From the NCBI GenBank assembly GCA_965233135.1, contig CBDDRM010000028.1, positions 100,331 to 164,330 on the forward strand: 64,000 nucleotides of DNA, given 5' to 3'. The stretch is from an uncultured bacterium. GTDB taxonomy: Bacteria; Pseudomonadota; Gammaproteobacteria; Burkholderiales; JACQAP01. Position numbers and translations under genes: made by a program. This document shows positions 4,715-37,394 of this stretch, one piece after another (the first letter of the stretch is position 1; every line of letters starts with the position of its first letter). The notes below the pieces were generated by a model, which saw only the letters and a list, made by a program, of their open reading frames with translations, was not told the origin of the DNA and did not search any database.

Positions 4715-7273
4715 ATGACGAGCGGTACCCGATTCGCCCTGGAAGTCAATCCAAAACTTCCGCCCCGGCTCGCGCGCATGCAGGAGCTCGCAAATAATCT
4801 GCTGTATAGCTGGGACCGGCAGACGCGCATGCTGTTTTCGCGCCTCGACCCGCAACTCTGGGAGAAAATCGGCCACAGTCCCAAAGCCTTTCTCAAGCGG
4901 GTCGACGAGCAGAGGCTGCTGGACGCCGCCGAGGATCCTGTGTTCCTGGGCAATCTGAACCGCGTGCTCTCGGCGTTCGACGTTTATTTGAAGGAACCGT
5001 TGCGTCGCAACGGCTCGGAATGGCTGCGCAAGAACGATACGGTCGCCTATTTCTGCGCCGAGTTCGGCGTCCACGAGAGCCTGCCCATTTATTCCGGAGG
5101 TCTGGGCATCCTGGCTGGCGACCATTGCAAATCCGCAAGCGACATGCGTCTTCCGTTTGTCGGCGTGGGATTGCTCTATCGGCAGGGCTATTTTCATCAG
5201 ACCATCGATACCGAAGGCAATCAGCATGCGCTGTATGCGGATTCCGATTTCGAGGATCTTCCGATCACGCCGGTACTGCGTGCGGATGGTTCCGATTTGC
5301 GCGTCAGCGTGGAGTTTCCGGGCAGACATTTGCAGATCAAGGTGTGGCAGGCCTGCATCGGGCATGTAATGCTTTATTTGCTGGACACCGATCTACCCGA
5401 GAATTCCGCGGATCATCGCGATATCACGCACCGTCTCTACGGAGGGGACCGCGAAACGCGGATACAGCAGGAAATCGTGTTGGGCATTGGCGGGGTACGC
5501 GCACTGGCGGAGTTGAACATTCAGCCCACCGCGTGGCATATCAACGAAGGTCACCCGGCGTTCCTGGTGCTCGAACGTGCGCGCACGCTGGTGGCGCAAG
5601 GCATGGCATTCTATGCGGCTATGGAAGCCGTGGCTGCCATCACGGTATTCACCACGCACACGCCGGTTCCCGCCGGCCACGATCATTTCAGCGCCGAGGC
5701 GATCCGCAATTATTTTCCTTGGCTGCGCGCCCAGCTCGGCCTGAGCGAAGAGCAGTTCATGGCACTGGGCAGGGTCAATGACGGGCACGATTTCAACATG
5801 ACCGCGCTGGCGATTCGCGGTTCCCGATTCCAAAACGGGGTCAGCCGCATTCACGGCGGCGTCTCCTCGCACATCTGCGCACCGCTGTGGCCCCAGATCG
5901 AACCGCATGAGAACCCGTTGTCGTATGTCACCAACGGCGTGCACGTGCCGACCTTTCTCGCGCCGGAGTGGGCGGATCAGTTCGACAAGTTTCTGGGTTT
6001 CGACTGGTCGCATCATGCCGGCACGCAGGGCTTCCAGGAACGCCTGCAAACCATGCCGGATCATCTGTTCTGGAGCGTACGCCAGTCGCTCAAAGCCCAG
6101 ATGCTGCATCTGGTGCGCAATCGCGTGGCACGGCAGCACTTTCGCAATAACGGCTCGGAAGCGCATCTGGAGCGACTGCTGCGCTACGCGGACCCGACCA
6201 ATCCGAACGTGCTGACCGTGGGCTTCGCGCGCCGATTCGCCACGTACAAGCGCGCAACCCTGTTTTTCCAGGATCTCGACTGGTTGCGCCTGATTCTTGC
6301 CGACAGCGCAAAGCCGGTGTTGTTTATTTTCGCGGGCAAGGCCCATCCGGCGGATACTCCCGGACAGGATGTCATCCGCGACCTGAATCGCATTGCGCGC
6401 ATGCCGGAGTTCGAAGGCAAGATCCTTTTGCTCGAAGACTACGACCTGCATCTCGCGCGCCGGCTCGTGTCCGGCGTGGATGTCTGGTTGAACAATCCGA
6501 TGTATCCGCTGGAAGCGAGCGGAACTTCTGGCATGAAGGCGGGTATCAACGGCGTGCTGAACCTGTCGGTGCTCGACGGCTGGTGGGGCGAAGGCTATAA
6601 CGGGCGCAACGGGTGGGCGATCAAGCCCGTGGCGTCCAACCTCGATGAGGCGCGGCGTAATTTCGAAGAAGGCCGCACCTTGTACGAATTGCTGCAGGAT
6701 CATGTCGTGCCGACTTACTATCGGCGCGGCGAAATGGGTTACTCGGCCGACTGGATCGACATGGCCAAGCAGTCGATCACCTCGATCCTGCCGCGCTATT
6801 CGTCCACGCGCATGGTCGGCGAGTATCTGGCCAAGTTCTATCTGCCGGCGACCCGGCAGGGCCGACGCTACGCCGAATCGGGTTTCGAGCCTGCGCGGCG
6901 TCTGGCATCGTGGAAACAGCACGTGCGCGACGTCTGGCCCAAAATTACCATGCGACGGCTGGACGCACCGCAAAAACGCATCGTCTTCGGCGACCCGCTG
7001 CGCGTGGAGGTCGGCGTTTTTCTCGGCGGCCTCGCCCCCGAGGATGTCGCGCTCGAGTTGCTGATCGAGAAGCAAGCGCTCGATGACGCGGAGCAGCGGC
7101 CCAAGGCCTACCGGTTCGAATCCGAGGGGCGCATGACCGAGCAAGGCGAACAGCGTTTCGCGCTGGAACTCAGCCCGGAGCTTTGCGGAAAACTCGAATA
7201 CCGCATTCGCGCTTATCCGATTCACGAGTTGCTCACGCATCCGTTCGAGCTTGGCATGATGCGCTGGCTCTAA
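4715..7273 (+). CDS. glgP: Alpha-glucan (glycogen/maltodextrin) phosphorylase, GT35, long bacterial type
   Basis: 852 aa. It contains GGLGILAGDH and the PLP-lysine region EASGTSGMKAGINGVLNLSVLDGWW. Confidence 0.9.
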   Translation: MTSGTRFALEVNPKLPPRLARMQELANNLLYSWDRQTRMLFSRLDPQLWEKIGHSPKAFLKRVDEQRLLDAAEDPVFLGNLNRVLSAFDVYLKEPLRRNGSEWLRKNDTVAYFCAEFGVHESLPIYSGGLGILAGDHCKSASDMRLPFVGVGLLYRQGYFHQTIDTEGNQHALYADSDFEDLPITPVLRADGSDLRVSVEFPGRHLQIKVWQACIGHVMLYLLDTDLPENSADHRDITHRLYGGDRETRIQQEIVLGIGGVRALAELNIQPTAWHINEGHPAFLVLERARTLVAQGMAFYAAMEAVAAITVFTTHTPVPAGHDHFSAEAIRNYFPWLRAQLGLSEEQFMALGRVNDGHDFNMTALAIRGSRFQNGVSRIHGGVSSHICAPLWPQIEPHENPLSYVTNGVHVPTFLAPEWADQFDKFLGFDWSHHAGTQGFQERLQTMPDHLFWSVRQSLKAQMLHLVRNRVARQHFRNNGSEAHLERLLRYADPTNPNVLTVGFARRFATYKRATLFFQDLDWLRLILADSAKPVLFIFAGKAHPADTPGQDVIRDLNRIARMPEFEGKILLLEDYDLHLARRLVSGVDVWLNNPMYPLEASGTSGMKAGINGVLNLSVLDGWWGEGYNGRNGWAIKPVASNLDEARRNFEEGRTLYELLQDHVVPTYYRRGEMGYSADWIDMAKQSITSILPRYSSTRMVGEYLAKFYLPATRQGRRYAESGFEPARRLASWKQHVRDVWPKITMRRLDAPQKRIVFGDPLRVEVGVFLGGLAPEDVALELLIEKQALDDAEQRPKAYRFESEGRMTEQGEQRFALELSPELCGKLEYRIRAYPIHELLTHPFELGMMRWL

Positions 7274-8646: not shown

Positions 8647-8677
8647 AAAAAGCCCGGCGCGAAGCCGGGCTTTATTC
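8647..8677. terminator. Bidirectional intrinsic terminator between convergent DUF336 gene and larB
   Basis: AAAAAGCCCGGCGCGAAGCCGGGCTTTATT: a GC stem flanked by an A-run and a T-run. Confidence 0.8.
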
Positions 8678-8685
8678 TTGGCGCC

Positions 8686-9342
8686 TCACGTACGCAGGAT
8701 GCGCAAGGCGGCGCACGCCGCACCGAATCCATTGTCGATGTTGGTGACGACCAGTCCCGCCGAACAACTCGCGAGCATGGCGCGCAACGCCGTCTCGCCG
8801 CCAGTTGCTACGCCATATCCGACCGAAGTCGGTACGCCTATGACCGTGCTGGAAACCAGTCCGCCGATCACCGTCGGCAGCGCCGCGTCCATCCCGGCGA
8901 CCGCGATCACCACCCGGGCACTGCGGATTTCTTCGATGCGCTCGAGCAACCGCCATAATCCGGCCACCCCCACATCGTTGATTTCAACGGCCGGCTCGCC
9001 ATAGAAGCGCAAGGTACGCACGGCTTCGCGCGCGACGCCCACATCCGAAGTGCCGGCGGCAACGATCGCCACCTGGGTTTTCGTTTTCGTATCGTGCGTG
9101 CCGCCAAAGTAGCCGGTACGCGAGAGCGGTTCGTAGTCGATGGCGGCGCGGTGCGCTTCGGAAAGCCCGGCCAGCTGTTCAGGCAGAAGGCGCGTGAGCA
9201 GGATGCGCCGTTGTTTCTCCTGCACTTGCCCCAGAATGGCCGACAGGTGCGCCACCGATTTCGATGCACACATCACGGCTTCGTCGAGACCGGTGCGCGC
9301 GTCGCGCGCAAAATCAAGCATGACATCCTTGTGCAAAGTCAT
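8686..9342 (-). CDS. larB: Nickel-pincer cofactor biosynthesis protein LarB (PurE-fold NaAD carboxylase/hydrolase)
   Basis: 218 aa. The PurE-like C-terminal half reads VAIVAAGTSDVGVAREA...AVAGMDAALPTVIGGL...VIGVPTSVGYG. It lies next to larE and larC. Confidence 0.85.
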   Translation of the reverse strand: MTLHKDVMLDFARDARTGLDEAVMCASKSVAHLSAILGQVQEKQRRILLTRLLPEQLAGLSEAHRAAIDYEPLSRTGYFGGTHDTKTKTQVAIVAAGTSDVGVAREAVRTLRFYGEPAVEINDVGVAGLWRLLERIEEIRSARVVIAVAGMDAALPTVIGGLVSSTVIGVPTSVGYGVATGGETALRAMLASCSAGLVVTNIDNGFGAACAALRILRT

Positions 9343-9369
9343 CGCAGCAAACTCATCGGCATGGATTGA

Positions 9370-10194
9370 TCAGGCGCCATCGCGCTTGCGCTGTACCAGG
9401 AACGCGCTGCCGGTACGGTATGCGGCCAGCGACACCGGATACGCAAAGCCGCCGTCGCGAAACAACGTGCCGACTTCGGCCTTGATATGGTCGCGGGCTG
9501 GCGCATCCAGCGCCGCAAGCTTTTGCTCGTCGAGTTCGATCACGACACCGCCGGCGCGCACGCGGCAGCGCACGGTGCGCGGCGCAAGAGAGCGGGCCAG
9601 CGAAAGCTCCGCCGCATGCACGAGCTTGAGCATCGCCGGATCGATGGCGATTCCGGTTTCGATGCGGCTCGACAGACAGGGCGCGGAGGGCAGTTCGGCG
9701 ATCGCTTCCAGACCGAGATGGCTGGCCAGCGCGCGCACTTTTTTCTTGTCGATTCGGGCCTCGACGTAGGGATGTCGCACGCCGTGGTTCCTGGCTGCCT
9801 CCAGACCTGGCCTGTATTCACCGAGGTCGTCGAGATTCGTGCCGGCGACGATCTGGGCCGTCGTGTGCGGTCGTAACGCCCCATACAGATTGGTCTTGCA
9901 GTAAAAGCAGCGATTGACCGGGTTGCTGCGATAGTTCGCGTCGTCGAATTCACCGGCGTCCACGACTGTGAGCCGCCAGCCCTGTTCGATGGCGAGCCGG
10001 CGCACGCGCTCGGTTGCCTGGGGGGGCACGGCGGGCGAAACCGCGTGGAACATCGATACGTTGTGCTGCACGGTACGCTGGGCCACCGTCGCCAGCGTGA
10101 GGCTGTCGACGCCGCCGCTGACCGCCACCGCCATCGGTCCCATCTCGCACAGCAGCCCCTGCAGTTTTTCCAGCGCGTGGGTCACGTCGCTCAT
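9370..10194 (-). CDS. larE: ATP-dependent sulfur transferase LarE (PP-loop ATP pyrophosphatase)
   Basis: PP-loop VAVSGGVDS, plus CFYCK and SAPCLSSR motifs. Its start overlaps the larC stop (ATGA). Confidence 0.85.
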   Translation of the reverse strand: MSDVTHALEKLQGLLCEMGPMAVAVSGGVDSLTLATVAQRTVQHNVSMFHAVSPAVPPQATERVRRLAIEQGWRLTVVDAGEFDDANYRSNPVNRCFYCKTNLYGALRPHTTAQIVAGTNLDDLGEYRPGLEAARNHGVRHPYVEARIDKKKVRALASHLGLEAIAELPSAPCLSSRIETGIAIDPAMLKLVHAAELSLARSLAPRTVRCRVRAGGVVIELDEQKLAALDAPARDHIKAEVGTLFRDGGFAYPVSLAAYRTGSAFLVQRKRDGA

Positions 10195-11414
10195 TCGCGC
10201 TCCTTGCGCAGCACCATGCGTTCGGCTTCGCGTTGCAGGCGCTCCCGCTCTGCGCGCCCGCCGATCACGTTACGCAAATCATCGGCTTCGACTTTTGCCG
10301 TGCTGCTGCCGGGGCGTTGCGCGACCTTGACACGCAACTGGCGGCCGGCAGCCTCGACCGTGGTGCTGGCGCGGTCGAGCTTGCGCCTTTGCAGGAACTG
10401 GTAGCGCACGCCCAGCGTCGTCGTTTCGTTGAAACAGGCCTCGAAGACCCCCTCCAGGTCCGCCGCTTCGGCGAGTAACTGGATATGCATGGTCAGACGG
10501 CCTTTCTTGCCGAATGCGGGCGTCTGCAGCACATCGAGCACTGCGGGATGCGCGCGCAGCCGGTCGAGTGCGGTCGCCAGATCTTCGGGAGTCTGGTCGT
10601 CGACTTCGAATTGCACTTGCATGACTTCATCGCCGAAGCTGCGATTCTCGGGCGCTTCCTCGAATGCCAGCACGCGCAGGACGTTGCTGATGCCTGGAAA
10701 ACTGCGCGTGCCGAAACCGATACCCGTGCGCAACAGGCGGCGGGGGCGGCGGGCCGGCGTCTGCGAGCAACCCAGATGGCGCAAGACGGCGGCGCCGGTG
10801 GGGGTGACGCGTTCGCCCTCCAGCCCGTCATCGGCAAACTCGTAGCCCTGCAATAACAGCACCGTCGCGGGCACCGGGACGGGCAGCAGCCCGTGTGCGG
10901 TTTTCACGCGACCACGTCCGAGCGGCAGGCTGCTGACCGACCAAGTCGCCGCCGCCTCATTGGCCGCCAGCGCATCGATCAGGTAGGCCGCACCTACGAT
11001 GTCGGCAATCGAATCCCATTCGCCCAGTTCGTGAAAGCTGACACTGTCGATGGACTTTCCGTGGACCTTGGCCTCCGCCTCGGCGAGCGCGCTGAAAATA
11101 CCGACGGCATGATCCCGCACTGCCGGCGCCAACGCCGAGCGCTGCAGATGCGCGCGAATATCGGCGAACGGTGTATGCGGATGGTGATGCGCGGCCACCA
11201 GCAGCTCGGCCACGCGCGGCTCGATCACGCGAAATCGCAGGCCGGTCAGCGCGTGATCCTGGTGCTCGGCGATGCCCGCATGAACTTCCGGCGGCAGCCC
11301 GGCAGCGCGAATCGACGCCAACAGGCCGCCGCGCAAATCCGGAAACGCGTCGAGCATGGCGGCGATGAACATATCGCCCGCCACGCCTCCGACCGCGTCA
11401 AGATGGATATGCAT
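10191..11414 (-). CDS. larC: Nickel insertion protein LarC (pyridinium-3,5-bisthiocarboxylate mononucleotide nickel chelatase)
   Basis: N-terminus MHIHLDAVGGVAGDMFIAAMLDAF is typical of LarC/DUF111. 407 aa. Confidence 0.85.
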   Translation of the reverse strand: MHIHLDAVGGVAGDMFIAAMLDAFPDLRGGLLASIRAAGLPPEVHAGIAEHQDHALTGLRFRVIEPRVAELLVAAHHHPHTPFADIRAHLQRSALAPAVRDHAVGIFSALAEAEAKVHGKSIDSVSFHELGEWDSIADIVGAAYLIDALAANEAAATWSVSSLPLGRGRVKTAHGLLPVPVPATVLLLQGYEFADDGLEGERVTPTGAAVLRHLGCSQTPARRPRRLLRTGIGFGTRSFPGISNVLRVLAFEEAPENRSFGDEVMQVQFEVDDQTPEDLATALDRLRAHPAVLDVLQTPAFGKKGRLTMHIQLLAEAADLEGVFEACFNETTTLGVRYQFLQRRKLDRASTTVEAAGRQLRVKVAQRPGSSTAKVEADDLRNVIGGRAERERLQREAERMVLRKERE

Positions 11415-11438
11415 GCGAAGTACGCTCTAGCCCGGCGA

Positions 11439-12773
11439 CTAGGCCGCCGCGTGCTCCCGATGCTTGCCCAGCATCGGATACAGGTTGCCCTTGGCGTCGA
11501 ACTTGAAAGCTTCGGGCGCGCCCACAATTTCGAACATCGAGGGGTTGGCCTTGATCAGCGGGAGCATGGGCTCGGATACGTGGATGTCCACGATCTCGAG
11601 CGTGGTGGCGATGCGTACGATCCTGGTATCCTGAGGCTTGACCCTGACTACAGTTTTCACGGCCAGGCGGATCGCGTCTTCGTCCGTGTTCATGATCAAC
11701 GGGATCGCGCCCCCGTCGAGGTAGGTCGACGTGATGATATTGGCGTAGGTCTTGCCGACGTCGAGCTCTTTGTACAGCTTCATCGTGGTCACGTCGGCGC
11801 CGCCGATGCCGCAAGCGTTGCCGTGCGTCTCGGGCGTCAGGCCGAGTACGGCGATCTTCTTGACCAGCGGTTTCATGTTCCACTCGACGAACCGGCAATT
11901 GCGGCCGGTGATGTTCGGATCCATGCCCGAACCGGAAATATTCTTGCCGATTTTTTCCACCACCAGCACGTCGATTTCGTCGAACTGCAGGCGTGGCATC
12001 AGTTCCTTGGCCTTGGCGAGCAGGACTGGTTCGCGCTCGAAGGTCTGTTCCGAGGGCACGATCTCGATGATCGCGGTTTCGTCCGCCGCGTTCTCCACCA
12101 TGGCCACGCCGAACAGGAAGTTCTTGCGCGCGAGAATATACTTCGCGGTCTTCGGCAGCAATTCGCCGAACATGTCCATGCCGTAGGTGTGCAGGGTCGT
12201 GGCGCCGATGATCTTGCCCATGCCGATGGTCAACATCTTCACGATGCCCGATTCGATGGGCGCGCGGAAGTTAGTGTGCGGTTTGACGCGTGGAATGACG
12301 ACGATCGCGTCGGCTTCGGACGCATGCTTGTCGATGTACACCGGCATGCCGTCGTCGAGCTTGCCCAGCTCAACCACATCCATGCTGGATTTGATCGGAC
12401 AGCCCACGTAACTCTCGGTGATGCCATAGCCTTCGAGCACTTCGCGCTGGCCCTCGGCGGTCGCGCCCCCATGGCTGCCCATGGCCGGGAATATGAAGGG
12501 TTTGGCGCCAAGCGCCTTGAGCTCCCCGACCACGGCCTTGGCGCATTCAGCGATGTTGTTGATGCCACGCGAACCGCAACCGACGGCGATGCTCATGCCC
12601 GGCTTGACCTTGGCCCGCACTTCCGGGCGACTGAACTGCTCCTTGATGGTCTTGGTGACACTGTCGAGTTTCTTAGTCTGAAACTTTTGACGCACATGCA
12701 CCATCCGCGGCAGGGCGATATCCAGTCCGCCGGCCATGTTGACTTCGATGCGATCACCGATCATTTCAGCCAT
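11439..12773 (-). CDS. Divergent LarA-like (lactate racemase N-domain/DUF2088-type) protein, putative NPN-dependent enzyme of unknown substrate
   Basis: 444 aa, with RBS GGAGG. PHTNFRAPIESGIVKMLTIGMGKIIGATTLH contains a Lys...His pair 16 residues apart, the same spacing as LarA Lys184/His200. It sits immediately upstream of larC-larE-larB. The canonical SDHTRP motif is not recognisable. Confidence 0.55.
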   Translation of the reverse strand: MAEMIGDRIEVNMAGGLDIALPRMVHVRQKFQTKKLDSVTKTIKEQFSRPEVRAKVKPGMSIAVGCGSRGINNIAECAKAVVGELKALGAKPFIFPAMGSHGGATAEGQREVLEGYGITESYVGCPIKSSMDVVELGKLDDGMPVYIDKHASEADAIVVIPRVKPHTNFRAPIESGIVKMLTIGMGKIIGATTLHTYGMDMFGELLPKTAKYILARKNFLFGVAMVENAADETAIIEIVPSEQTFEREPVLLAKAKELMPRLQFDEIDVLVVEKIGKNISGSGMDPNITGRNCRFVEWNMKPLVKKIAVLGLTPETHGNACGIGGADVTTMKLYKELDVGKTYANIITSTYLDGGAIPLIMNTDEDAIRLAVKTVVRVKPQDTRIVRIATTLEIVDIHVSEPMLPLIKANPSMFEIVGAPEAFKFDAKGNLYPMLGKHREHAAA

Positions 12774-12859
12774 CCTCCATACAGTGTTGTTTTGAGGCCG
12801 CCAACCGGGGCGCGGGTCGAGCAGCGGGAAAAAATGATTCTACTCCAGGGCGCCCTCGG

Positions 12860-14326
12860 CTAGCCAATGGGCAGGGCGCGGTACAAGTCCAGGTATTGTT
12901 GCGCGCGCGCTGCCCAACTGAAATCGCGCTGCATGCCGTTTTTCTGCAGTTGCCGCCAGGTTCGTTGATCGTGATAGACACTTACCACCCGGCGGCAGTT
13001 CGCGAACATGGTCGTGGCATCAAGCGGGGTGAAAACGAAGCCGGTAGCCGTTCGATTCTTTAGCGTCGCGGGCGTGCAGTCGATCACCGAATCGCGCAAC
13101 CCGCCAGTGCCGTGCACCAGGGGCGGTGTGCCATAGCGCTGGCTGTACATCTGGTTCAGGCCGCACGGCTCGAAGCGCGATGGCATGACGAACACGTCCG
13201 CGCCGGCCTCGACCTGATGAGACAGATTCTCGTCGAAGCCGATGTGCACCGCGATCTGACCTTCATATTGCTGCGCGAGCGCCTGGAAGCGGCGCTGCAG
13301 CACCGGGTCGCCCGCGCCGAGAACGACCAGTTGTGCAGGCAGCTTGACCAACTCGCCGGCAATATCGGCAAGCACGTCCAGGCCTTTCTGATCGGTCAGG
13401 CGACTCACAGTCCCGAACAGCGGCGTCAGCGGTTCGTCGCGCAACCTCATGCGCAATTGCAAGGCGCGCTTGTTATCCTGCTTGGCGGCCAGGCGCGATG
13501 CATTGTAGTAACGCTCGATATAAGGATCCGACTCCGGATCCCACGCGTCGACATCGATGCCGTTGAGGATGCCGGTGAGCACGTCCTTGCGGCGCGAGAG
13601 CAACCCCTGCAACCCCATGCCCAGCGGTTCACTTTGTATCTCCTCGGCATAGCTGGGGCTAACCGTCGTGATGCGATCCGCATACTGCAGCCCGCCTTTC
13701 AGAAACGACAGGTTGCCGTAATACTCCACCCCGTCGATGTTGAATGCCTGCGGCGGCAGTCCCAGCCGGTTCGCGCTCTGCGGGGGAAAGATCCCCTGGA
13801 ACGCGAGATTGTGCAGGGTCATGACCGTGCGCGCGCGCGGTCCCTGCGCGTAGTCCAGATATACCGGCGTCAATCCGGTCTGCCAGTCGTTGCAATGGAC
13901 GATATCGGGCTTCCAGGCTGAGAACGGAGAGGAGGGCGTGGACAATACGGCGCTCACGTACGAGAACAGGCCGAAGCGCAAGTCGTTGTCGGGCCAATCG
14001 ACTCCTGATGCGTCCTGATAGGGACCGCCTGCGCGCTGGTAAATCGGACACTCGACCACGAACAGGGGCAAGCCCGACGGCAGTTTCGAGGCGATCAGAC
14101 TCGCTCCCGGCATGCCGGGCAAGCCGGGCAGCGTGGCCACCCGGCTTCGGGTTTTCAGTGCGCTCATGACTTGCGGATAACCGGGAACGAGCAGACGGAT
14201 GTCGACACCCAGAGCGTGCAGCGCAACGGGCAGGGCAGCACTGACGTCGGCAAGTCCGCCGGTCTTGATAAGCGGCGCCACCTCCGATGTTGCGAACAGG
14301 ACCTTGAGTTTTTCGGCTTCCGCCAT
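12860..14326 (-). CDS. glgA: Glycogen synthase (ADP-glucose type, GT5)
   Basis: KVLFATSEVAPLIKTGGLADV (KTGGL motif). 488 aa. Confidence 0.95.
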   Translation of the reverse strand: MAEAEKLKVLFATSEVAPLIKTGGLADVSAALPVALHALGVDIRLLVPGYPQVMSALKTRSRVATLPGLPGMPGASLIASKLPSGLPLFVVECPIYQRAGGPYQDASGVDWPDNDLRFGLFSYVSAVLSTPSSPFSAWKPDIVHCNDWQTGLTPVYLDYAQGPRARTVMTLHNLAFQGIFPPQSANRLGLPPQAFNIDGVEYYGNLSFLKGGLQYADRITTVSPSYAEEIQSEPLGMGLQGLLSRRKDVLTGILNGIDVDAWDPESDPYIERYYNASRLAAKQDNKRALQLRMRLRDEPLTPLFGTVSRLTDQKGLDVLADIAGELVKLPAQLVVLGAGDPVLQRRFQALAQQYEGQIAVHIGFDENLSHQVEAGADVFVMPSRFEPCGLNQMYSQRYGTPPLVHGTGGLRDSVIDCTPATLKNRTATGFVFTPLDATTMFANCRRVVSVYHDQRTWRQLQKNGMQRDFSWAARAQQYLDLYRALPIG

Positions 14327-14393
14327 GGATGATTATTCGTCGTTATACTTGTTCGTCAGCCACAGCCGTCGTGACTGCAGAGACTTTGCGCGT

Positions 14394-16628
14394 CTATTCC
14401 GAGCACCGCAGAATCAGCGCGCCCAGAGGCGGCAGGGTGATGTCGGCCGACTGACCATGACCCATCCATGGAAAAGCCTGTGAGGCAATGATGCCGGCAT
14501 TTCCGGAGTTCGATCCGGCGTAGAACGCCGAGTCGCTGTTGAACACCTCATGCCAGGCGCCGGGCTTTGGCAACCCCACCCGATATCCGTCTCGGGGCAC
14601 CGGAGTGAAATTCAGCGCGACGACGACCGCCGAACCGTCGCGCGCCCTGCGCTCGAAACACAGTACCGACTGGTCGGCATCGTTGCAGTCGACCCAGCGA
14701 AATCCGTCCGGTTCGAAATCCAGTTCGTGCAATGCGGGCTCATCCCGGTACAGGCGGCAAAGATCCCGCAGCATGGTTTGCACGCCGCGGTGCCAGTCTA
14801 TGCCAAGGAGACCCCAGTCGAGTTCGCCGGCTGCCCGCCATTCACGTCCCTGGGCAAATTCGTTGCCCATGAAATTGAGCTTCTTGCCCGCAGAAACAAA
14901 CTGGTACGCAAGCAGCAATCTGACGTTGGCGAATTTCTGCCAGGCATCGCCCGGCATCTTTTCCAGCAGTGAGCCTTTGCCGTGCACCACTTCGTCGTGC
15001 GAGAGCGGCAACAGAAAGTTCTCGCTATAGGCGTAGATCTGGCCGAAAGTGAGTTGATTGTGGTGAAACCGCCGGTGCACCGGATCGTTTTGCATGTATG
15101 CCAGCGTATCGTTCATCCAGCCCATGTTCCATTTCATGGAGAAGCCCAAGCCGCCCAGATACACCGGCCGGGAAACCATCGGCCAGGCAGTCGATTCCTC
15201 GGCACAGGTCAGGGCGCCCGGGAAATCACGATGCACCATGACATTCAACTCGCGCAGGAAGTCGATGGCCTCCAGATTCTCGCGGCCGCCAAACTTGTTG
15301 GGGATCCACTCGCCGGCCTTGCGCGAGTAATCCAGATACAGCATCGATGCGACTGCGTCGACGCGCAGGCCATCGACATGGCATTCTGCGAGCCAGTAGT
15401 GCGCGCTCGACAGCAGGAAGCTTTTTACTTCCTTGCGGCCATAGTTGAAGATGTGGGTGCCCCAGTCCTGATGGAATCCCAACCGCGGATCCTCGTGTTC
15501 ATACAGCGCGGTCCCGTCAAAACGCGCCAGCGAAAAGGCGTCGGTCGGAAAATGCGCGGGCACCCAGTCGAGCAGCACACCGATCCCCGCCTGATGGCAG
15601 GCATCGACGAAGGCCTTGAAGTCCTGGGGCGTGCCGAATCGGCTGCTGACCGCAAAATAACCCGTGGTCTGATAACCCCAGGATTCATCCAGCGGGTGTT
15701 CCGAAACGGGCAACAACTCGATATGCGTGAAACCCATGTCGAGTACGTAGGGTATGAGACTCTGCGCCAGTTCCGCATACGTGTAGAAGCGCCCATCGGG
15801 ATGGCGTCGCCACGAACCGGCATGCACTTCATAGATATTCAGCGGCGCATGCAGCCAATCCCAGCGCGAGCGTCGGCGCATCCATTGCTCGTCGCCCCAG
15901 GTGTAGTCGTCGGCCACCACGCGCGCGGCCGTACCGGGACGCCGCTCGTGAAAACGCGCATAGGGATCGGTCTTGACGAGCAGCTCGCCGGTCGCTCGGT
16001 TGCGTATCTCGAATTTGTAGAGGCTGCCGGCATCCACGCCGGGAATGAACAGTTCCCATACGCCACTTGCGCCGTGGGAGGACATCGGATGCACGCGCCC
16101 GTCCCAGCGGTTGAACTCGCCCACCACGCTGAGCCTCTGCGCGTTGGGAGCCCAGCATGCAAATCGCACCCCGCTGACGCCTTCACGCTGCTCGATCCGG
16201 CTGCCCAGCACGCGGTAGGCCTGCTCCAGCCGGCCTTCGTTGAACAGGTACAGGTCCTCTGCGCCGGTCGCAGGAGCAAAGGTATAGGGGTCATGCGTTT
16301 CGAACCTCTGTCCGTCCTCCTCGACGCGCAGCAGCACCGGGCGCGGCAGCGCATCGCCCTGCCAGGCGAACACGCCCTGCGGGTGAATGCGTTTCATCGG
16401 GACAAATCCGCTTTGCGTGCGGACGTCCACCGCCGCGGCATAAGGCCGAAACACGCGCAACGCCCACCCCTTTGCGCTGCGATGCAAGCCCAACAGGCTA
16501 AACGGATCGTGGTGACGGGCGCCCACCAGGGCGTCCAGATCATCGGCTGCAGAAAGTTCAAGCGTGGCGCTCATCGGGGAATAGGGACCGCATTCAGCCA
16601 GGGAGTTCGTGACGTCGGACGACGTCAC
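14394..16628 (-). CDS. glgB: 1,4-alpha-glucan branching enzyme (GH13)
   Basis: 744 aa. GH13 regions are present: [47 protein letters not shown]. The start may be the downstream Met (MSATLEL). Confidence 0.95.
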
Positions 16629-16755
16629 CCCTATTATAAGCAGAGGGCTTCAGTTCGGGATTTTCCTTTCACGGACGGAAAAACCTGACGTCACGCGAGC
16701 AGCCGGCGCGATATTCTGCGCATCGGGCGGATCGTTTAACATCTGGGGAAACGTC

Positions 16756-18039
16756 ATGACCACTCACGACAAGAATGTCCGCTTCGTCAGCGAACTGACC
16801 AAGAACACCTATGCACTGGTGCTCGCCGGCGGACGCGGCAGCCGGCTGAAGAATCTGACCGATTGGCGCGCCAAGCCGGCGGTGCCCTTCGGCGGCAAGT
16901 TTCGTATTGTCGACTTCCCGTTATCGAATTGCGTGAATTCCGGGATTCGCCGCATCGGCGTTGCAACCCAATACAAATCCCACAGCCTGATCCGGCATAT
17001 TCAGCGCGGCTGGAGCTTTTTGAATGGCCGGTTCCAGGAATTCGTGGATATTCTTCCCGCCTCGCAACGCACCGATGAGCAGAATTGGTATCTCGGCACG
17101 GCTGACGCCGTGTACCAGAATCTCGATATCCTGCGCAGCTACGGTGCTCACTATATTCTGGTGCTCGCCGGTGATCATATCTACAAGATGGACTATGGCA
17201 AGGTCCTGGCCTATCACGTGGCAAACAAAGCCGACGTCACGGTGACGTGCCTGGAGGTTCCGCGCATGGATGCCACCGCCTTCGGCGTGCTGCACGTTGC
17301 CAAGGACTGGCGTGTCACCGATTTCATCGAAAAGCCGGCCGATCCGCCGTGTATTCCCGGCCAGCCCGACATGGCGCTCGCGAGCATGGGTATCTATGTG
17401 TTCAATGCGGACTTTCTGTACGAGCAGCTCAAGCGCGATTCCCTCGACCGTTCATCCAATCACGACTTCGGCCGCGATCTCATTCCCTATGTCGTCCCGC
17501 GTCACCGCGTATTTGCGCAGCGCTTCGACGACAGTTGTGTCGGCCACCGCGGCAAGGCGGCGTACTGGCGCGACGTCGGCACCGTCGACGCCTACTGGGA
17601 ATCGAACATGGATCTGACGCGCGTGACCCCCGATCTGAACATGTACGACAAGGACTGGCCGATCTGGACGCATCAGGAACAGCTGCCGCCGGCCAAGTTC
17701 GTGTTCGACGACGAAGGCCGGCGTGGCGGCGCGATTGACTCCGTGGTCTCAGGCGGCTGCCTGATCAGCGGAACGACGGTGAAACGCTCGTTGTTGTTTT
17801 CCAATGTGCGTGTGCACAGCTACGGCAGCATCGAAGACTCGTTGATCCTGCCCGACGTGGTCGTGAACCGGAACGTGAAACTTCGCTGCACGGTCGTGGA
17901 CAAGAGCTGCGTCCTGCCCGAAGGCCTGACCGCGGGTTTCAACCCGGAAGACGATCGGCGCCGTTTCCATGTATCCGACCGCGGCATCACCTTGATCACG
18001 CCGGACATGCTCGGCCAGGATGTTTTTCACCAACGTTGA
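16756..18039 (+). CDS. glgC: Glucose-1-phosphate adenylyltransferase
   Basis: Internal ATG gives MTTHDKNVRFVSELTKNTYALVLAGGRGSRLKNLTDWRAKPAVPFGGKFRIVDF. It is divergent from glgB. Confidence 0.95.
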   Translation: MTTHDKNVRFVSELTKNTYALVLAGGRGSRLKNLTDWRAKPAVPFGGKFRIVDFPLSNCVNSGIRRIGVATQYKSHSLIRHIQRGWSFLNGRFQEFVDILPASQRTDEQNWYLGTADAVYQNLDILRSYGAHYILVLAGDHIYKMDYGKVLAYHVANKADVTVTCLEVPRMDATAFGVLHVAKDWRVTDFIEKPADPPCIPGQPDMALASMGIYVFNADFLYEQLKRDSLDRSSNHDFGRDLIPYVVPRHRVFAQRFDDSCVGHRGKAAYWRDVGTVDAYWESNMDLTRVTPDLNMYDKDWPIWTHQEQLPPAKFVFDDEGRRGGAIDSVVSGGCLISGTTVKRSLLFSNVRVHSYGSIEDSLILPDVVVNRNVKLRCTVVDKSCVLPEGLTAGFNPEDDRRRFHVSDRGITLITPDMLGQDVFHQR

Positions 18040-18073: not shown

Positions 18074-19774
18074 ATGAACAAATCGACCAAGCTAGACCTG
18101 GTGCTTCTTTGGCATATGCACCAGCCGGATTTCCGCGACCACGCCAGCGGCGAGTTCGCACAGCCCTGGGTATATTTGCACGCCATCAAGGATTACACGG
18201 ACATGGCGGCGCATCTGGAGGCGCATCCTGGCATGCGCGCCGTGGTCAATTTCACGCCCGTGCTGCTCGACCAGCTCGAGGACTACGCGCAACAGTTCGC
18301 ATCCGGCAGCTTTCGCGATCCCCTGCTACGGCTGCTGGCGCAAGCTGACCTGCAGCAAGTCGATGAGGGCGGCCGCGATCTCGTTCTGAACTCGTGCTTC
18401 CGCGCTAACCACCAGAAGTTGATCGACCCTTATCCGGCGTATCGGCGCCTGTTTGAGTTCTATCGGGTTGCACTCAGTCATGGCGACAGCGCCATGTACC
18501 TGTCCGCGCAATACCTCGGGGACTTGCTGAGCTGGTATCACCTGTCATGGATGGGGGAAACGGTCCGCCGGCGCGACCGGCGCGTGTCCGCACTGATCAC
18601 CAAGGCGCAAGGATTCACCCATCAGGACCGCATGCAGTTGCTCGAGATCATCGGGCGAGAAGTGCGCGAAGTGATTCCGCGTTATCGCAAGTTGTTCGAA
18701 AGCGGGCACATCGAACTGACCACCACGCCGGAATACCATCCGATCGGTCCATTGCTGATGTCCTTCGAAGCGGCCCGCCAAGCCACGCCGGAGGCCTCTT
18801 TGCCCGACTGCCCGAGCTATCCGGGCGGTCGCGAGCGCGTGCTGGCGCATACCTCCGCCGCGCAACAAAGCCATAGCCGGCGTTTCGGCCAGCCCGCGCG
18901 GGGCATGTGGCCGGCGGAAGGCGCCGTATCGCACGAGTTTGCGGGCTTGCTGGCCGAGCAGGGGTGCGAATGGATCGCAAGCGGCGAAGGCGTGCTCGCG
19001 CGTTCGTTGCGCACTCACCAGGGCGCCCTGCCGGAACGCCACGAATTTCTGTTCAAGCCCTATCGTATCGACAACGGCCAAGCCGGCATCACCTGCTTCT
19101 TTCGCGACGACCGGCTGTCCGATCTGATCGGGTTCGAGTATGCCAAATGGCATGGCGAGGATGCGGCAGCGCATTTCGTCGGCGCGCTCGAGGAGATCGC
19201 AGGCCGCGCCGCCGCCGGCGCGCCGCCGGTCGTCAGCGTCATTCTCGATGGCGAGAATGCCTGGGAGTATTACCCCTACAACGGCTACTATTTTCTCGAC
19301 GCCCTGTACGCGGCGCTTGAGGACCATGCCCAGGTTGCGACTCGCACATTTGCCCAGGTCCTTGACGCAGCCAAAAATTCGTCTTTTGAGCCGTTGCCGG
19401 GGCTGGTGGCGGGAAGCTGGGTATACGGCGACCTGGCGACGTGGATCGGCGGCGCGGACAAGAATCGCGCCTGGGACTTGCTCTGTGCGGCAAAGCGCAG
19501 CTTCGACGACGTCGTCGCCAGCGGCCGATTGAGCGAGGCACAAATTGCCCGGGCCTCGCGCCAGCTCGCCGACTGCGAGGCATCCGACTGGTGCTGGTGG
19601 TTCGGTGATTACAACCCGGCAGAATCGGTCATGGCGTTCGATAAACTCTATCGAAGCAAGCTCGCACACCTGTATGCGCTTCTGCAGCAGCCGGCCCCGG
19701 CGGAACTCGAGATACCGATCAGCCGCGGCAAGCAGAATTCGGACGCCACCAACGCCATGCGTCGCGCCTCCTGA
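18074..19774 (+). CDS. Glycoside hydrolase family 57 protein (alpha-amylase/glucanotransferase-like)
   Basis: N-terminal LVLLWHMHQPDF..., plus GxWPAEGAVS and ILDGENAWEYY regions typical of GH57. 566 aa, 34 nt after glgC. Confidence 0.8.
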   Translation: MNKSTKLDLVLLWHMHQPDFRDHASGEFAQPWVYLHAIKDYTDMAAHLEAHPGMRAVVNFTPVLLDQLEDYAQQFASGSFRDPLLRLLAQADLQQVDEGGRDLVLNSCFRANHQKLIDPYPAYRRLFEFYRVALSHGDSAMYLSAQYLGDLLSWYHLSWMGETVRRRDRRVSALITKAQGFTHQDRMQLLEIIGREVREVIPRYRKLFESGHIELTTTPEYHPIGPLLMSFEAARQATPEASLPDCPSYPGGRERVLAHTSAAQQSHSRRFGQPARGMWPAEGAVSHEFAGLLAEQGCEWIASGEGVLARSLRTHQGALPERHEFLFKPYRIDNGQAGITCFFRDDRLSDLIGFEYAKWHGEDAAAHFVGALEEIAGRAAAGAPPVVSVILDGENAWEYYPYNGYYFLDALYAALEDHAQVATRTFAQVLDAAKNSSFEPLPGLVAGSWVYGDLATWIGGADKNRAWDLLCAAKRSFDDVVASGRLSEAQIARASRQLADCEASDWCWWFGDYNPAESVMAFDKLYRSKLAHLYALLQQPAPAELEIPISRGKQNSDATNAMRRAS

Positions 19775-20617: not shown

Positions 20618-22345
20618 ATGAAGAAAAGAAAGCGCGCTGAGGAGTTGCGCAGCCATCGCTGGTATGGTGCCCAGGATCTGCGCTCCTTCGGACATCGCTC
20701 GCGCACCCTGCAAATGGGTTTCGCTCACGAGGATTACAAAGGCAAGCCGGTTATCGCCATCATCAACACCTGGAGTGACATCAATAATTGTCATTCCCAT
20801 TTCCGCCAGCGTGCCGAGGAAGTCAAGCGCGGCGTGTGGCAGGCCGGCGGCTATCCGCTGGAAATGCCGGCCATTGCCCTGGCGGAAGTCTTCCAGAAGC
20901 CAACCACGATGATGTACCGCAACTTTCTTGCGATGGAGACCGAGGAGTTGCTGCGCTCCTACCCGGTAGATGGCTGCGTGCTGATGGGCGGTTGCGACAA
21001 GACTACGCCGGGCTTGCTGATGGGCGCAATCAGCATGAATTTGCCCGGGATTTTCATGCCCGCAGGCCCGATGCTGCGGGGCAACTGGCGCGGCAAGACA
21101 CTCGGTTCAGGCTCGGACGTCTGGAAGTACTGGGACGAGTTGCGCGCGGGCCGGATTGATGAAGGCGACTGGAAGGAAATCGAACAAGGCATCGCGCGCT
21201 CCGCCGGCACGTGCATGACCATGGGGACTGCATCGACCATGACCGGCGTGGCCGAAGCACTCGGCTTCAGCCTGCCGAATGCGTCGACGATTCCCGCGGT
21301 GGATTCGAACCACAGCCGCATGGCCGACTACACGGGTCGGCGCATCGTCGACATGGTCTGGGAGGATCTCAAGCCGAGCGATATCCTGACCGACAAGTCT
21401 TTCGACAACGCCATCCGCGTGTTGATGGCGCTGGGCGGCTCGACCAATGGTCTGATCCACGTGATCGCGATGGCCGGACGCGCCGGCATAAAGATAGCGC
21501 TGGAGCGCTTCGAGCAGATTGGTCAGCGCACACCGTACCTCGTCAATATGCGCCCATCGGGAAAGTATCTGATGGAGGATTTCTATTACGCCGGCGGATT
21601 GGCCGGCATGCTCGAAGGCATGCGCGAAATGCTGGATGTCGATCAGCTTACCTGCACCGGCAAGAGCCTCGGCGAGAATATCGCGGGAGCGAAAATTCAT
21701 GACGCGGACGTGATCCGCACGCCCGCGAATCCGATGCAGCCCGAGGGAGGGCTGATTGTCCTACGTGGCAATCTCGCCCCCGACGGGGCGGTCATCAAGT
21801 CCACGGCCGCCGATCCGCGCTTGCTCAAGCACGTCGGGCGCGCAATGGTGTTCGACGATTACAACGACATGGCTGCCCGCCTTGACGATCCTGACCTTGA
21901 TGTCGATGCGGATTCAGTTCTGGTGCTGCGTAACGCCGGCCCGCTCGGTGGGCCGGGGATGCCCGAGTGGGGCATGCTGCCGATCCCGAAGAAATTATTG
22001 AAACAAGGCGTGCGCGACATGGTGCGCATTTCCGACGCGCGCATGAGCGGCACCAGTTATGGAACCTGCGTGCTGCATGTGTCCCCGGAATCCTGGATCG
22101 GCGGGCCGCTCGCGCTGGTGAAAACCGGCGATATGATCGAGCTCGATGTGCCAGGTCGCAAACTCACGCTGAAGGTCAGCGAGGAAGAACTGACAATCCG
22201 GCGCGCCGCCTGGAAACCGCACACCAGGAAATTCCCGCGCGGTTACGGCCGCATTTTCTCGCAACATGTGTCGCAAGCCGACAAGGGCTGCGATTTCGAT
22301 TTTCTGGAAGGAAACGACGCCGTTCCGGAACCAGAGATACACTGA
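20618..22345 (+). CDS. IlvD/Edd-family dehydratase (sugar-acid or dihydroxy-acid dehydratase)
   Basis: RBS GAGGAG. It contains GKPVIAIINTWSD, GGCDKTTPG and ARSAGTCMTMGTAS (Fe-S Cys ligands) and SDARMSGTSYG. ~575 aa, resembling the arabonate/xylonate dehydratase subgroup. Confidence 0.85.
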   Translation: MKKRKRAEELRSHRWYGAQDLRSFGHRSRTLQMGFAHEDYKGKPVIAIINTWSDINNCHSHFRQRAEEVKRGVWQAGGYPLEMPAIALAEVFQKPTTMMYRNFLAMETEELLRSYPVDGCVLMGGCDKTTPGLLMGAISMNLPGIFMPAGPMLRGNWRGKTLGSGSDVWKYWDELRAGRIDEGDWKEIEQGIARSAGTCMTMGTASTMTGVAEALGFSLPNASTIPAVDSNHSRMADYTGRRIVDMVWEDLKPSDILTDKSFDNAIRVLMALGGSTNGLIHVIAMAGRAGIKIALERFEQIGQRTPYLVNMRPSGKYLMEDFYYAGGLAGMLEGMREMLDVDQLTCTGKSLGENIAGAKIHDADVIRTPANPMQPEGGLIVLRGNLAPDGAVIKSTAADPRLLKHVGRAMVFDDYNDMAARLDDPDLDVDADSVLVLRNAGPLGGPGMPEWGMLPIPKKLLKQGVRDMVRISDARMSGTSYGTCVLHVSPESWIGGPLALVKTGDMIELDVPGRKLTLKVSEEELTIRRAAWKPHTRKFPRGYGRIFSQHVSQADKGCDFDFLEGNDAVPEPEIH

Positions 22346-22400: not shown

Positions 22401-22856
22401 TTATTTATGCAAGTCGTCGGTCCAGTGCACCGTCGACGGTTGCTCGGCTACGGGAATGTCGAGGTTCACCACGACGGGTTCCTGGCCCGAGCGCACCAGC
22501 ACGCACGACAACGGCTCTTCATCGGATGCATTGATCTCCTGGTGCGGCACGAAGGGCGGCACGTGAATGAAATCACCCGGACCGGCTTCGGCGACAAATT
22601 CCAGCCGGTCGCCCCAGCGCATGCGCGCTTTTCCGCTGACGACGTAGATGACGCTTTCGACCGGACCGTGATGATGCGCACCGGTCTTGGCCTTGGCATG
22701 AATCACGACAGTTCCCGCCCATAACTTCTCAGCGCCACAGCGCGCGTGCGTGATGGCTGCCGCGCGATTCATGCCCGGTGTCTGCGGCGTATTCGTGTCG
22801 AGCTCCGTGCTCTTTACAACGCGGATGCCGTGGTATTTCCATTTGGACTCGGTCAT
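22401..22856 (-). CDS. Cupin-domain protein
   Basis: 151 aa. It has a cupin metal motif-like stretch, GAHHHGPVESVIYVVSG...GDFIHVPPFVPHQE. Confidence 0.7.
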   Translation of the reverse strand: MTESKWKYHGIRVVKSTELDTNTPQTPGMNRAAAITHARCGAEKLWAGTVVIHAKAKTGAHHHGPVESVIYVVSGKARMRWGDRLEFVAEAGPGDFIHVPPFVPHQEINASDEEPLSCVLVRSGQEPVVVNLDIPVAEQPSTVHWTDDLHK

Positions 22857-26136: not shown

Positions 26137-26251
26137 GCAGACCAACCGCCCTCGGTGTACAAGCTGCGATGATACCCGAGGCTGCGGCGCACGCGCTTGT
26201 GACGGGCGTGCATTTTGAGTAGGCTCATTGCTCTTTCTCCGGACACCAGCC

Positions 26252-27454
26252 ATGCCTTACCGCAGCGGACGTCATTTTCTGCAGATACCCGGCCCGACCA
26301 ACGTGCCCGACCGCATTCTGCGCGCCATGGATCGACCCACGATCGACCACCGCGGCCCCGCTTTCGCGCAACTCGGTCGAGAGGTGCTGGAAGGGCTCAA
26401 GGCGGTATTTCGTACCAGCGCGCCAGTCATCATTTATCCGGCATCGGGAACGGGCGCATGGGAAGCAGCGCTGGTCAATACGCTGTCCGCCGGCGATCGC
26501 GTGCTGATGGCGGAGACCGGTCAGTTTGCGACGCTGTGGCAGAAGCTCGCGACACGCCTGGGGCTGGTCGTGGATTTTATTCCCGGCGACTGGCGCCACG
26601 GCGCCGACGTGCAGGCGATCGAGCGCGTGCTGGCGCAGGACCGCGAGCGCATCATCAAGGCGGTGTGTGTGGTACACAACGAGACTTCGACCGGGGTAGT
26701 AAGCCGTATTCCGCTCGTGCGCGACGCGCTTGCGCGCTGTGCTCATCCGGCGCTGCTGCTGGTCGACACGATTTCGTCGCTGGGATCGATCGATTATCGC
26801 CATGACGAATGGGGCGTCGATGTCACGGTCGCCGGTTCCCAGAAAGGCCTGATGCTGCCCCCTGGACTGAGCTTCAACGCAGTGAGCAGCAAGGCGCTGG
26901 CAGCCGCAAAAAGCGCGCGCCTGCCGCGCAGTTATTTCAGCTGGGACGAAATGCTCGGCCCGAATAGTTCCGGCTTCTTTCCCTACACGCCCGCCACGAA
27001 TTTGCTGTACGGTCTGCGCGAGGCGCTGCATATGTTGCAGGAAGAAGGCCTGGAGAACGTGTTTGCGCGCCACGCCCGCCATGGCGAAGCCACGCGCGCA
27101 GCCGTGCGCGCATGGGGATTGGAGATCCTCTGCGCGGAGCCTGCCGAGTACAGCAACGCGCTCACCGCGGTACTGCTGCCCTCCGGGCAGGATGCAGACA
27201 AGGTCAGGCAAATCATCCTCGAGCGTTTCGACATGTCGCTCGGCGCTGGGCTGGGAAAGCTGCAGGGTAGAATTTTCCGCATCGGTCACCTCGGTGATTT
27301 CAATGATCTGACCCTGGCGGCGACCCTGTGCGGCGTCGAAATGGGGTTGCGGCTCGCGGGCGTGCCCATGCGCAGGGACGGCGTGGCCGCAGCACTCGAT
27401 TATCTGGCGCAATCCGGCGCGCAGCCGGCCGCGGCGCGCGTACGACTCGCCTGA
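26252..27454 (+). CDS. Class-V aminotransferase, serine-glyoxylate/alanine-glyoxylate (AGXT) type
   Basis: MPYRSGRHFLQIPGPTNVPDRILRAM..., HNETSTGV, and the PLP Lys in GSQKGLMLPPG. It is divergent from the YdiJ-like gene. Confidence 0.85.
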   Translation: MPYRSGRHFLQIPGPTNVPDRILRAMDRPTIDHRGPAFAQLGREVLEGLKAVFRTSAPVIIYPASGTGAWEAALVNTLSAGDRVLMAETGQFATLWQKLATRLGLVVDFIPGDWRHGADVQAIERVLAQDRERIIKAVCVVHNETSTGVVSRIPLVRDALARCAHPALLLVDTISSLGSIDYRHDEWGVDVTVAGSQKGLMLPPGLSFNAVSSKALAAAKSARLPRSYFSWDEMLGPNSSGFFPYTPATNLLYGLREALHMLQEEGLENVFARHARHGEATRAAVRAWGLEILCAEPAEYSNALTAVLLPSGQDADKVRQIILERFDMSLGAGLGKLQGRIFRIGHLGDFNDLTLAATLCGVEMGLRLAGVPMRRDGVAAALDYLAQSGAQPAAARVRLA

Positions 27455-37184: not shown

Positions 37185-37394
37185 TAGCGAGTCCTCTGAT
37201 TAAAACCGGATTTTACTGCACTCGGCGGATCGATCACAGCCATGCTGCGGCGCGGAGCGGGAATGCGTTGCGCAGCCCGCGCACGGCTCTTATAGTGGGT
37301 CATGATGCGCACTGCCAGGTTTCGGTGCCTCGGCGATGACGTCAGCTACACGATTCTCAGAAGATCCAAACACCGTACATCTACGGAGGACATC

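Follow-up and report, generated by a model that had tools for sequence, protein, structure and literature searches.

A group-22 LarA homologue and its nickel-pincer cofactor genes behind glgBA: a conserved junction in uncultured Burkholderiales with a putative promoter of its own

The substrates of LarA homologues, the enzymes that work with the nickel-pincer nucleotide (NPN), are sought chiefly through genomic context, and group 22 of this superfamily is a large branch that lacks a substrate assignment. The group comes from the work of Desguin et al. in 2020 (Sci Rep, PMC7583248), whose supplement holds 20 members under the label 'Unknown function', Rxyl_2987 and Bcoa_1745 among them, in which the LarA residues R75, H108, H174, K184 and H200 are retained. 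Table S1 of the same publication gives, for the contexts of group 22, short-chain dehydrogenases/reductases (SDR, 45%), IlvD/Edd dehydratases (30%), TRAP transporters (30%), sugar kinases (25%) and glucuronate isomerase (20%). GntE is a D-gluconate/D-mannonate 2-epimerase of LarA-homologue groups 19 and 20 (PMC7583248), and the same Table S1 records glycogen synthase (COG0297) within three genes of group-11 LarA homologues at 3 of 8 loci. Here we describe a 64,000-nucleotide (nt) stretch of DNA from an uncultured Burkholderiales bacterium (assembly GCA_965233135.1, contig CBDDRM010000028.1, positions 100,331 to 164,330; hereafter the window, in whose numbering all positions are given), where an array of six genes read from the minus strand (8686-16628) joins the glycogen genes glgB and glgA to a LarA homologue assigned to group 22 by its profile match (larAH22) and to the NPN-biosynthesis genes larC, larE and larB. 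The junction between glgA and larAH22 turned out to be conserved deep within one lineage, and the explanation that we favour, with modest confidence, is that of an autonomous lar cassette nested behind glgBA, the enzyme of which would act on a sugar acid.

Reading of the open reading frames (ORFs) on the minus strand gives the order glgB, glgA, LarA homologue, larC, larE and larB, separated by 67, 86, 24, -4 and 27 nt when the longest ORFs are taken, the negative value being a 4-nt overlap (ATGA) read directly from the sequence. LarB, LarE, the fused LarC, GlgA, GlgB and GlgC all score above the equivalog or subfamily cut-offs of NCBIfam (Table 1), and by this measure GlgA is a canonical equivalog. 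All three genes for NPN biosynthesis are present and intact beside the gene of their client enzyme. The translation of larE contains SGGVDS, a CxxC (C96, C99) and C173 and, following the CxxC...C motif by which [4Fe-4S] LarE has been defined (PMC9283937), the protein is by its motif a catalytic LarE of the tri-Cys [4Fe-4S] kind, as described from Thermotoga; the NCBIfam model that it matches carries the name 'sacrificial sulfur transferase' despite this motif. For glgB, the longest ORF is opened by a GTG at 16628, with an ATG at 16574 as a possible alternative start. A terminator-like hairpin with a U tract was found in no intergenic position between 16628 and 8677, the glgA/LarA spacer included. 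The terminator after larB, a 10-bp GC stem with a U tail whose folding energy is -21.5 kcal/mol on one strand and -26.5 on the other, was missed by a pattern scan because the A/T-extended stem consumes part of the T tail. A previous reading of this DNA, made from sequence only, had already given the order, gaps and ATGA overlap of the genes, their identities, the divergent position of glgC and GH57 and the bidirectional terminator as the first one met; it is upheld here in all these respects, the gene calls by profile searches with NCBIfam and Pfam.

The arrangement was surveyed in 80 genome and 80 metagenome loci, in which the window proteins were located by tblastn and which came to 72 loci after dereplication at 98.5%. 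Loci with a LarA homologue at least about 73% identical all belong to uncultured Burkholderiales or Betaproteobacteria. Among the informative dereplicated loci, glgA stands directly upstream of the LarA homologue (position -1) in 47 of 54 (87%), glgB at position -2 in 30 of 37 and larC at +1 in 58 of 59, while the HbpS-like gene, which in the window is the neighbour downstream of larB (+4), appears in 13 of 39 (33%). GlgA identity falls to 54% and yet the junction persists, and most relatives also keep the divergent glgC and GH57 in the same arrangement. In a neighbour-joining tree, the order glgB-glgA-larAH22 is basal in the clade, with two derived sister subclades in which it is rearranged: one has no glgB in the locus but keeps the glgA/LarA junction (L002, L009, L106, L109 and L115), and the other lacks glgA too and keeps larAH22-larCEB (L007, L127, L138, L145, L149, L150, L154 and L155). 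The adjacency to which the sequence-only reading had drawn attention is in this way a recurrent one. This synteny is genuine, goes far back inside a single lineage and had not been reported before; in terms of phylogeny, it takes a single gain and a single loss to explain. Beyond this clade, no glg gene was found within 10 kb of the distant group-22 genes (42-64% identity) in some 70 loci. Part of the conservation is explained by vertical inheritance, since the wider region is collinear as well: the window and L007 share a backbone of Sua5, class-V aminotransferase, dehydratase, lar genes, HbpS-like gene, HslUV and ZnuA, within which glycogen genes occur, or are missing, in whole blocks.

One of the loci surveyed departs from the others in its reading frames. 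In L035 (9956-13367), from a metagenome-assembled genome of Candidatus Eutrophomonas brisbanensis, the sequence of the LarA homologue falls into two ORFs (9956-10450 and 10657-11322), and one ORF of 670 amino acids covers both larC and larE. A full-length match to the LarA homologue was obtained in L127, a metagenome locus nearly identical to L035, the larC and larE ORFs of L127 lying outside that comparison; the state of L035 is probably an error of long-read assembly rather than a pseudogene.

A close-up view of the glgA/LarA junction was obtained from 63 distinct spacers of related loci, which measure 46-405 nt (median 91) and are never tight. By contrast, glgB and glgA are separated by -13 to +20 nt in deep lineages, and larC and larE by -4 nt in the window. 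In the window, the -10-like hexamer lies 18 nt past the glgA stop, and the weak -35-like hexamer, a further 19-nt spacer upstream, overlaps the stop codon of glgA. One hexamer of the form [TC]AnA[AC]T, mostly TAAAAT, TACAAT or TAGAAT, occurs in all 63 spacers, at -33 to -112 from the ATG of the LarA homologue and with clusters around -36 and -75, and, counted from the glgA stop, anywhere between -23 and +370; across these GC-rich loci (1.02 Mb) the background is 0.026 per 100 nt for the strict motif and 0.108 for the relaxed one. Moreover, the loci without glgA keep a -10-like box with a similar left flank (ctgagaTAAAAT vs ctggagTAAAAT). As the box is found in every spacer, is positioned by the start of the LarA homologue and is kept when glgA is gone, it very probably represents a promoter of larAH22-larCEB, to judge from its conservation, and the lar genes would be expressed on their own. 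The leader that follows was also considered as a conserved riboswitch-like structure, a possibility rejected when RNAalifold on 19 relatives returned 3 pairs and -0.46 kcal/mol; each relative has a GC hairpin of its own in this leader, and a search of Rfam with the spacer and leader gave a chance match only.

These observations bear on the proposal of the sequence-only reading that the six genes make up one glycogen transcription unit. Its part concerning termination stands, there being no terminator between glgA and the lar genes, whereas a single unit in the form proposed is not supported, in view of a -10-like box in 63 of 63 spacers and of junctions of 46-405 nt. Since no terminator lies upstream of the lar box, transcripts of glgBA probably read into the lar genes, which makes co-regulation plausible as far as the sequence goes, and because such read-through is probable, the two units appear to be nested rather than single.

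As to the LarA homologue itself, translation likely starts at the ATG at 12764 and not at 12773, because homologues have 441 amino acids and a GGAGG precedes this ATG by 9 nt; the glgA/LarA spacer then measures 95 nt. The match to Pfam Lar_N is weak, and neither phmmer nor a small-profile hmmsearch against the sequences of the Protein Data Bank (PDB) reached any solved LarA. Membership of group 22 ('nickel pincer cofactor-dependent isomerase, group 22', NF052515) was settled by NCBIfam, by a fold search and by the published group-22 sequences, and on these grounds the protein is a group-22 member. An AlphaFold2 model built from an 18-sequence alignment (pLDDT 86.9) was compared with the PDB by Foldseek, and the top 18 matches are all of the LarA family (9q3j, 9eia, 8ezf, 7s91, 5huq and 4nar among them), with E values from 2e-10 to 5e-8 and TM scores of 0.41-0.54; as modelled, the protein has the two-domain LarA fold. 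An exact look-up of the window protein returned no record. The family counts 1217 clusters at 50% identity (E below 1e-30), the nearest cluster representatives being 68% and then 52% identical to the window protein.

Over 230 sequences of the family (84 of the clade and 146 distant ones), five residues do not vary: R66, H98, H163, K176 and H192. They correspond to LarA R75, H108, H174, K184 and H200 by way of the group-22 rows in Dataset S2 of Desguin 2020, and not by superposition, so that the NPN-tethering lysine, the nickel-ligand histidine, the two catalytic histidines and the phosphate-binding arginine are all kept. When the 84 clade sequences are set against the 146 distant ones, no distinctive active-site substitution is found and just four conservative switches occur at conserved positions. 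Neofunctionalisation of the clade was rejected on this basis for the conserved positions, the variable positions of the pocket lying outside the comparison.

The nature of the substrate is suggested by what surrounds group-22 genes elsewhere. Among the 136 genes counted as directly adjoining group-22 genes at 70 distant loci were SDR (12), UxaC, IlvD/Edd, PdxA and FGGY kinase (5 each), altronate/galactarate dehydratase (4) and UxaE (2), and not one glycogen gene. In the window, an IlvD/Edd dehydratase of the L-arabinonate dehydratase type starts 850 nt beyond GH57, and it may be a partner of the LarA homologue in metabolism. Its orthologues (72-83% identity) divergently adjoin the LarA homologue in the glgA-less loci named above, and lie 5-9 kb from it in L002, L106 and L109. 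From these contexts and the nearby dehydratase gene, a sugar acid is the most likely substrate and the enzyme is probably a sugar-acid 2-epimerase; an intermediate of glycogen metabolism is an unlikely substrate. No literature was found that links lar genes with glycogen genes or that characterises group 22, which agrees with the earlier claim that this context is new for LarA homologues, the group being listed as of 'Unknown function' with sugar-acid neighbours.

Other genes around the dehydratase look related to the metabolism of 2-hydroxy and 2-oxo acids. They comprise a cupin (22401-22856, minus strand) beside it, a 1016-amino-acid fusion of a FAD-oxidase and a 4Fe-4S protein (23203-26253, minus strand) that resembles 2-hydroxyacid dehydrogenases of the GlcD/GlcF or YdiJ type, and a class-V aminotransferase (26228-27454, plus strand) that is BhcA-like but below the cut-off.

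Altogether, the working of the locus may be pictured as follows, in a model that builds on observed gene identities, fold, conserved residues, synteny counts and the conserved -10-like box, and for which we infer promoter activity, read-through and the class of the substrate. The upstream unit, glgB-glgA, would be an ordinary pair for glycogen synthesis, and the downstream unit a self-contained larAH22-larC-larE-larB whose sigma-70-type promoter would lie within the 95-nt spacer. RNA synthesis begun at the glgB promoter would probably continue into the lar genes, and both units would stop at the terminator past larB. LarB, the [4Fe-4S]-type LarE and LarC would build the NPN, to be installed on Lys176 of the LarA homologue. 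Because both catalytic histidines are present, a LarA-type mechanism is expected, in which the enzyme would invert a hydroxyl-bearing carbon by transient proton-coupled transfer of hydride to the NPN. The substrate would be an aldonate or a related 2-hydroxy acid, whose C2 epimer would feed a dehydratase. The link to glycogen would then be positional and possibly regulatory, through shared read-through during carbon storage, but not catalytic.

Some support for expression in situ comes from soil. Contigs of the metatranscriptomes X24, X25, X26, X37 and X42 match fragments of glgA and of the LarA homologue, those of X24 with 1 mismatch in 174 nt for the LarA homologue (12388-12561) and 0 in 263 nt for glgA (13384-13646). 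It is probable that both genes are expressed in situ, by this organism or by one very close to it, with the reserve that the runs may contain DNA.

The co-direction of the six genes and the lack of a terminator before 8647-8677 would also fit a single glycogen operon in which the NPN enzyme acts directly in the synthesis or use of storage glucan, for example by isomerising a compound on its way into or out of the alpha-glucan pool. Such an operon would account for a junction that is found in 47 of 54 relatives, reaches deeper than other neighbours, is kept upon loss of glgB and persists with GlgA diverged to 54% identity. It nevertheless appears unlikely, as every spacer has a -10-like box and none is tight, one subclade has dropped glgA and retained the cassette, no glg gene lies near any of the roughly 70 distant group-22 genes, and the clade has no active-site changes of its own beside a GlgA that is a canonical equivalog. 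A glucan phosphorylase on the opposite flank (4715-7273, plus strand; TIGR02094, 831 bits; DUF3417 and Phosphorylase domains), 1.4 kb beyond larB and past the LOG and HbpS-like genes, puts glycogen genes on both sides of the cassette; this flank is unique to the present genome, and a conserved embedded glycogen island was rejected because no related locus has the phosphorylase within 10 kb. The direct link between NPN-dependent isomerisation and storage glucan that the sequence-only reading had put forward is not indicated, given that the glgA-less subclade keeps the cassette, that distant group-22 genes never adjoin glg genes and that clade-specific active-site substitutions are lacking. Recruitment of the group-22 enzyme to storage-carbon metabolism, with isomerisation of some hydroxy acid or aldonate coming from or bound for the alpha-glucan pool, seems quite improbable; in one variant, glucan-derived carbon would possibly be channelled into a dehydratase-based, non-phosphorylative route. 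If recruitment were true, glgBA and lar would be co-expressed for a metabolic reason, and nickel and NPN would be needed for glycogen turnover.

A purely historical adjacency, with a lar cassette that landed once by glgA and has been inherited vertically since then, expressed independently and with no tie to glycogen, would match the single origin and single loss implied by the tree, the collinear backbone that the window and L007 share in spite of its functionally unrelated genes, and the promoter-like element of the cassette itself. We regard it as somewhat doubtful, since retention is 87% on the glgA side against 33% on the larB side, across GlgA divergence to 54%, and since the lar genes, with no terminator after glgA, are not fully insulated from transcription of glgBA. 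The nested cassette with a sugar-acid substrate remains our preference, and several points weigh against it. The strong retention of the glgA/LarA junction, which survives the loss of glgB, hints at selection beyond mere position, and the phosphorylase in this genome brings glycogen genes to the other flank too. The -35 region is weak, so that a role other than that of a sigma-70 promoter is conceivable for the box. Among the soil metatranscriptome contigs, none that is certainly RNA crosses 12765-12860; a single contig spans the junction perfectly (12629-12889), from X43, a run of unclear kind for which RNA is not certain. The dehydratase lies beyond 10 kb in most of the glgBA-linked relatives, so that its association with the LarA homologue is recurrent, not universal. 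Finally, no report of group-22 activity was found in the literature, and the assignment to sugar acids comes from context.

Further features were noted around the glycogen genes. In the subclade of the window (L084, L087, L094, L097, L098 and L107) the glgB/glgA spacer is expanded to 90-183 nt and contains tandem heptamer-like repeats, CGTGAAT and CGTGACT, followed by their reverse complements ATTCACG and AGTCACG; the spacer of the window (14327-14393) is a degenerate version of it, and deep lineages have tight or overlapping genes at this point. The divergent glgB/glgC region has a perfect inverted repeat, GTGACGTC-ggac-GACGTCAC, at 16609-16629 and a TGACGTCA palindrome at 16686-16693, which by their sequence could be an operator. 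Enrichment of motifs of the TGACGTCA type in the window was considered and found not significant (3 against 1 expected, with 6 of 100 shuffles equal). Farther away, a pyruvate kinase (33432-34868, minus strand) and a sugar-type solute-binding protein (37302-38657, plus strand) were confirmed by Pfam, and the ORFs at about 44.3-48.2 kb have N-termini, unchecked, that resemble those of what we take to be the Entner-Doudoroff genes hexR, zwf, pgl and eda.

Table 1. Features of the lar-glg locus and its surroundings, in window positions
Feature	Positions	Strand	Evidence and remarks
larB, NaAD (nicotinic acid adenine dinucleotide) carboxylase/hydrolase of NPN synthesis	8686-9342	-	NF033503, 251 bits (cut-off 175); Pfam AIRC
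larE, ATP-dependent sulfur transferase	9370-10194	-	TIGR00268, 251 bits (cut-off 150)
larC, nickel-inserting cyclometallase, LarC1 and LarC2 fused	10191-11414	-	TIGR00299 and NF052512; Pfam Ni_insertion, 320 bits
LarA homologue (larAH22)	11439-12764 (longest ORF from 12773)	-	NCBIfam NF052515, 539.7 bits (cut-off 400); Pfam Lar_N 34.1 (23.3)
Predicted 5' leader of the LarA homologue	12765-12836	-	GC-rich hairpin, A-rich tract, GGAGG 12778-12774
Promoter-like element	12837-12867	-	-10-like TAGAAT 12842-12837; weak -35-like TTGGCT 12867-12862
glgA, ADP-glucose-type glycogen synthase	12860-14326	-	NCBIfam NF001899, 600 bits (cut-off 459); Pfam Glyco_transf_5
glgB, 1,4-alpha-glucan branching enzyme	14394-16628	-	NCBIfam NF003811, 1002 bits (cut-off 741); Pfam GlgB_N, CBM_48, Alpha-amylase, Alpha-amylase_C
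glgC	16756-18039	+	NF001947, 680 bits (cut-off 470); divergent from the array
GH57 (glycoside hydrolase family 57) gene	18074-19774	+	Pfam Glyco_hydro_57; divergent from the array
IlvD/Edd dehydratase, L-arabinonate dehydratase type	20621-22345	+	NF009559 equivalog, 1000 bits (cut-off 882)
Bidirectional intrinsic terminator	8647-8677	both	GCCCGGC-ttcgc-GCCGGGC, T runs on either strand

The novelty lies in the junction with glgBA and in the promoter-like box, both of them conserved, the parts being all of known kinds, and the locus is a useful lead for the assignment of a group-22 substrate more than a new kind of system. The junction with glgBA and the recurrent neighbour of the L-arabinonate dehydratase type offer two rival, testable hypotheses. 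If the link to glycogen is metabolic, it would be the first tie of nickel-pincer chemistry to storage-carbon metabolism; otherwise, we would have a clean case of an unrelated operon with a cassette for a cofactor and its client enzyme nested behind it, and a caution against taking co-directional genes without a terminator for a single functional unit.

Among the known systems, the group-11 loci are the only co-location of LarA homologues and glycogen synthase found in the literature; they differ in that their enzymes are putative 2-hydroxyglutarate racemases accompanied by Fe-S and FAD dehydrogenases, and the co-location is of low frequency and was not commented on by the authors. The larA-larBCE genes of L. 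plantarum provide the same four functions, also with the cofactor cassette beside the client enzyme. In the window, however, the gene order is A-C-E-B, LarC is one fused ORF, LarE is of the CxxC...C [4Fe-4S] type by its motif as opposed to the sacrificial single-Cys type, and neither lactate-related nor nickel transporter genes were seen near the cassette. GntE comes closer in the chemistry that may be expected of the window enzyme, being an NPN-dependent C2 epimerase of aldonates encoded in sugar-acid clusters, but it belongs to another LarA group, and the positions F175/F176 are E,V in GntE, T,D in group 22 and T,N in the window. The nearest relatives are those of group 22 itself, Rxyl_2987 and Bcoa_1745, with which the window protein shares PAMGSHGGAT, KPHT.F and ESG..KM; it stands apart from them in a distinct Burkholderiales subclade and in its place behind glgBA, whereas the published contexts of the group (SDR, IlvD/Edd, TRAP and sugar kinase; PMC7583248) are without glycogen genes.

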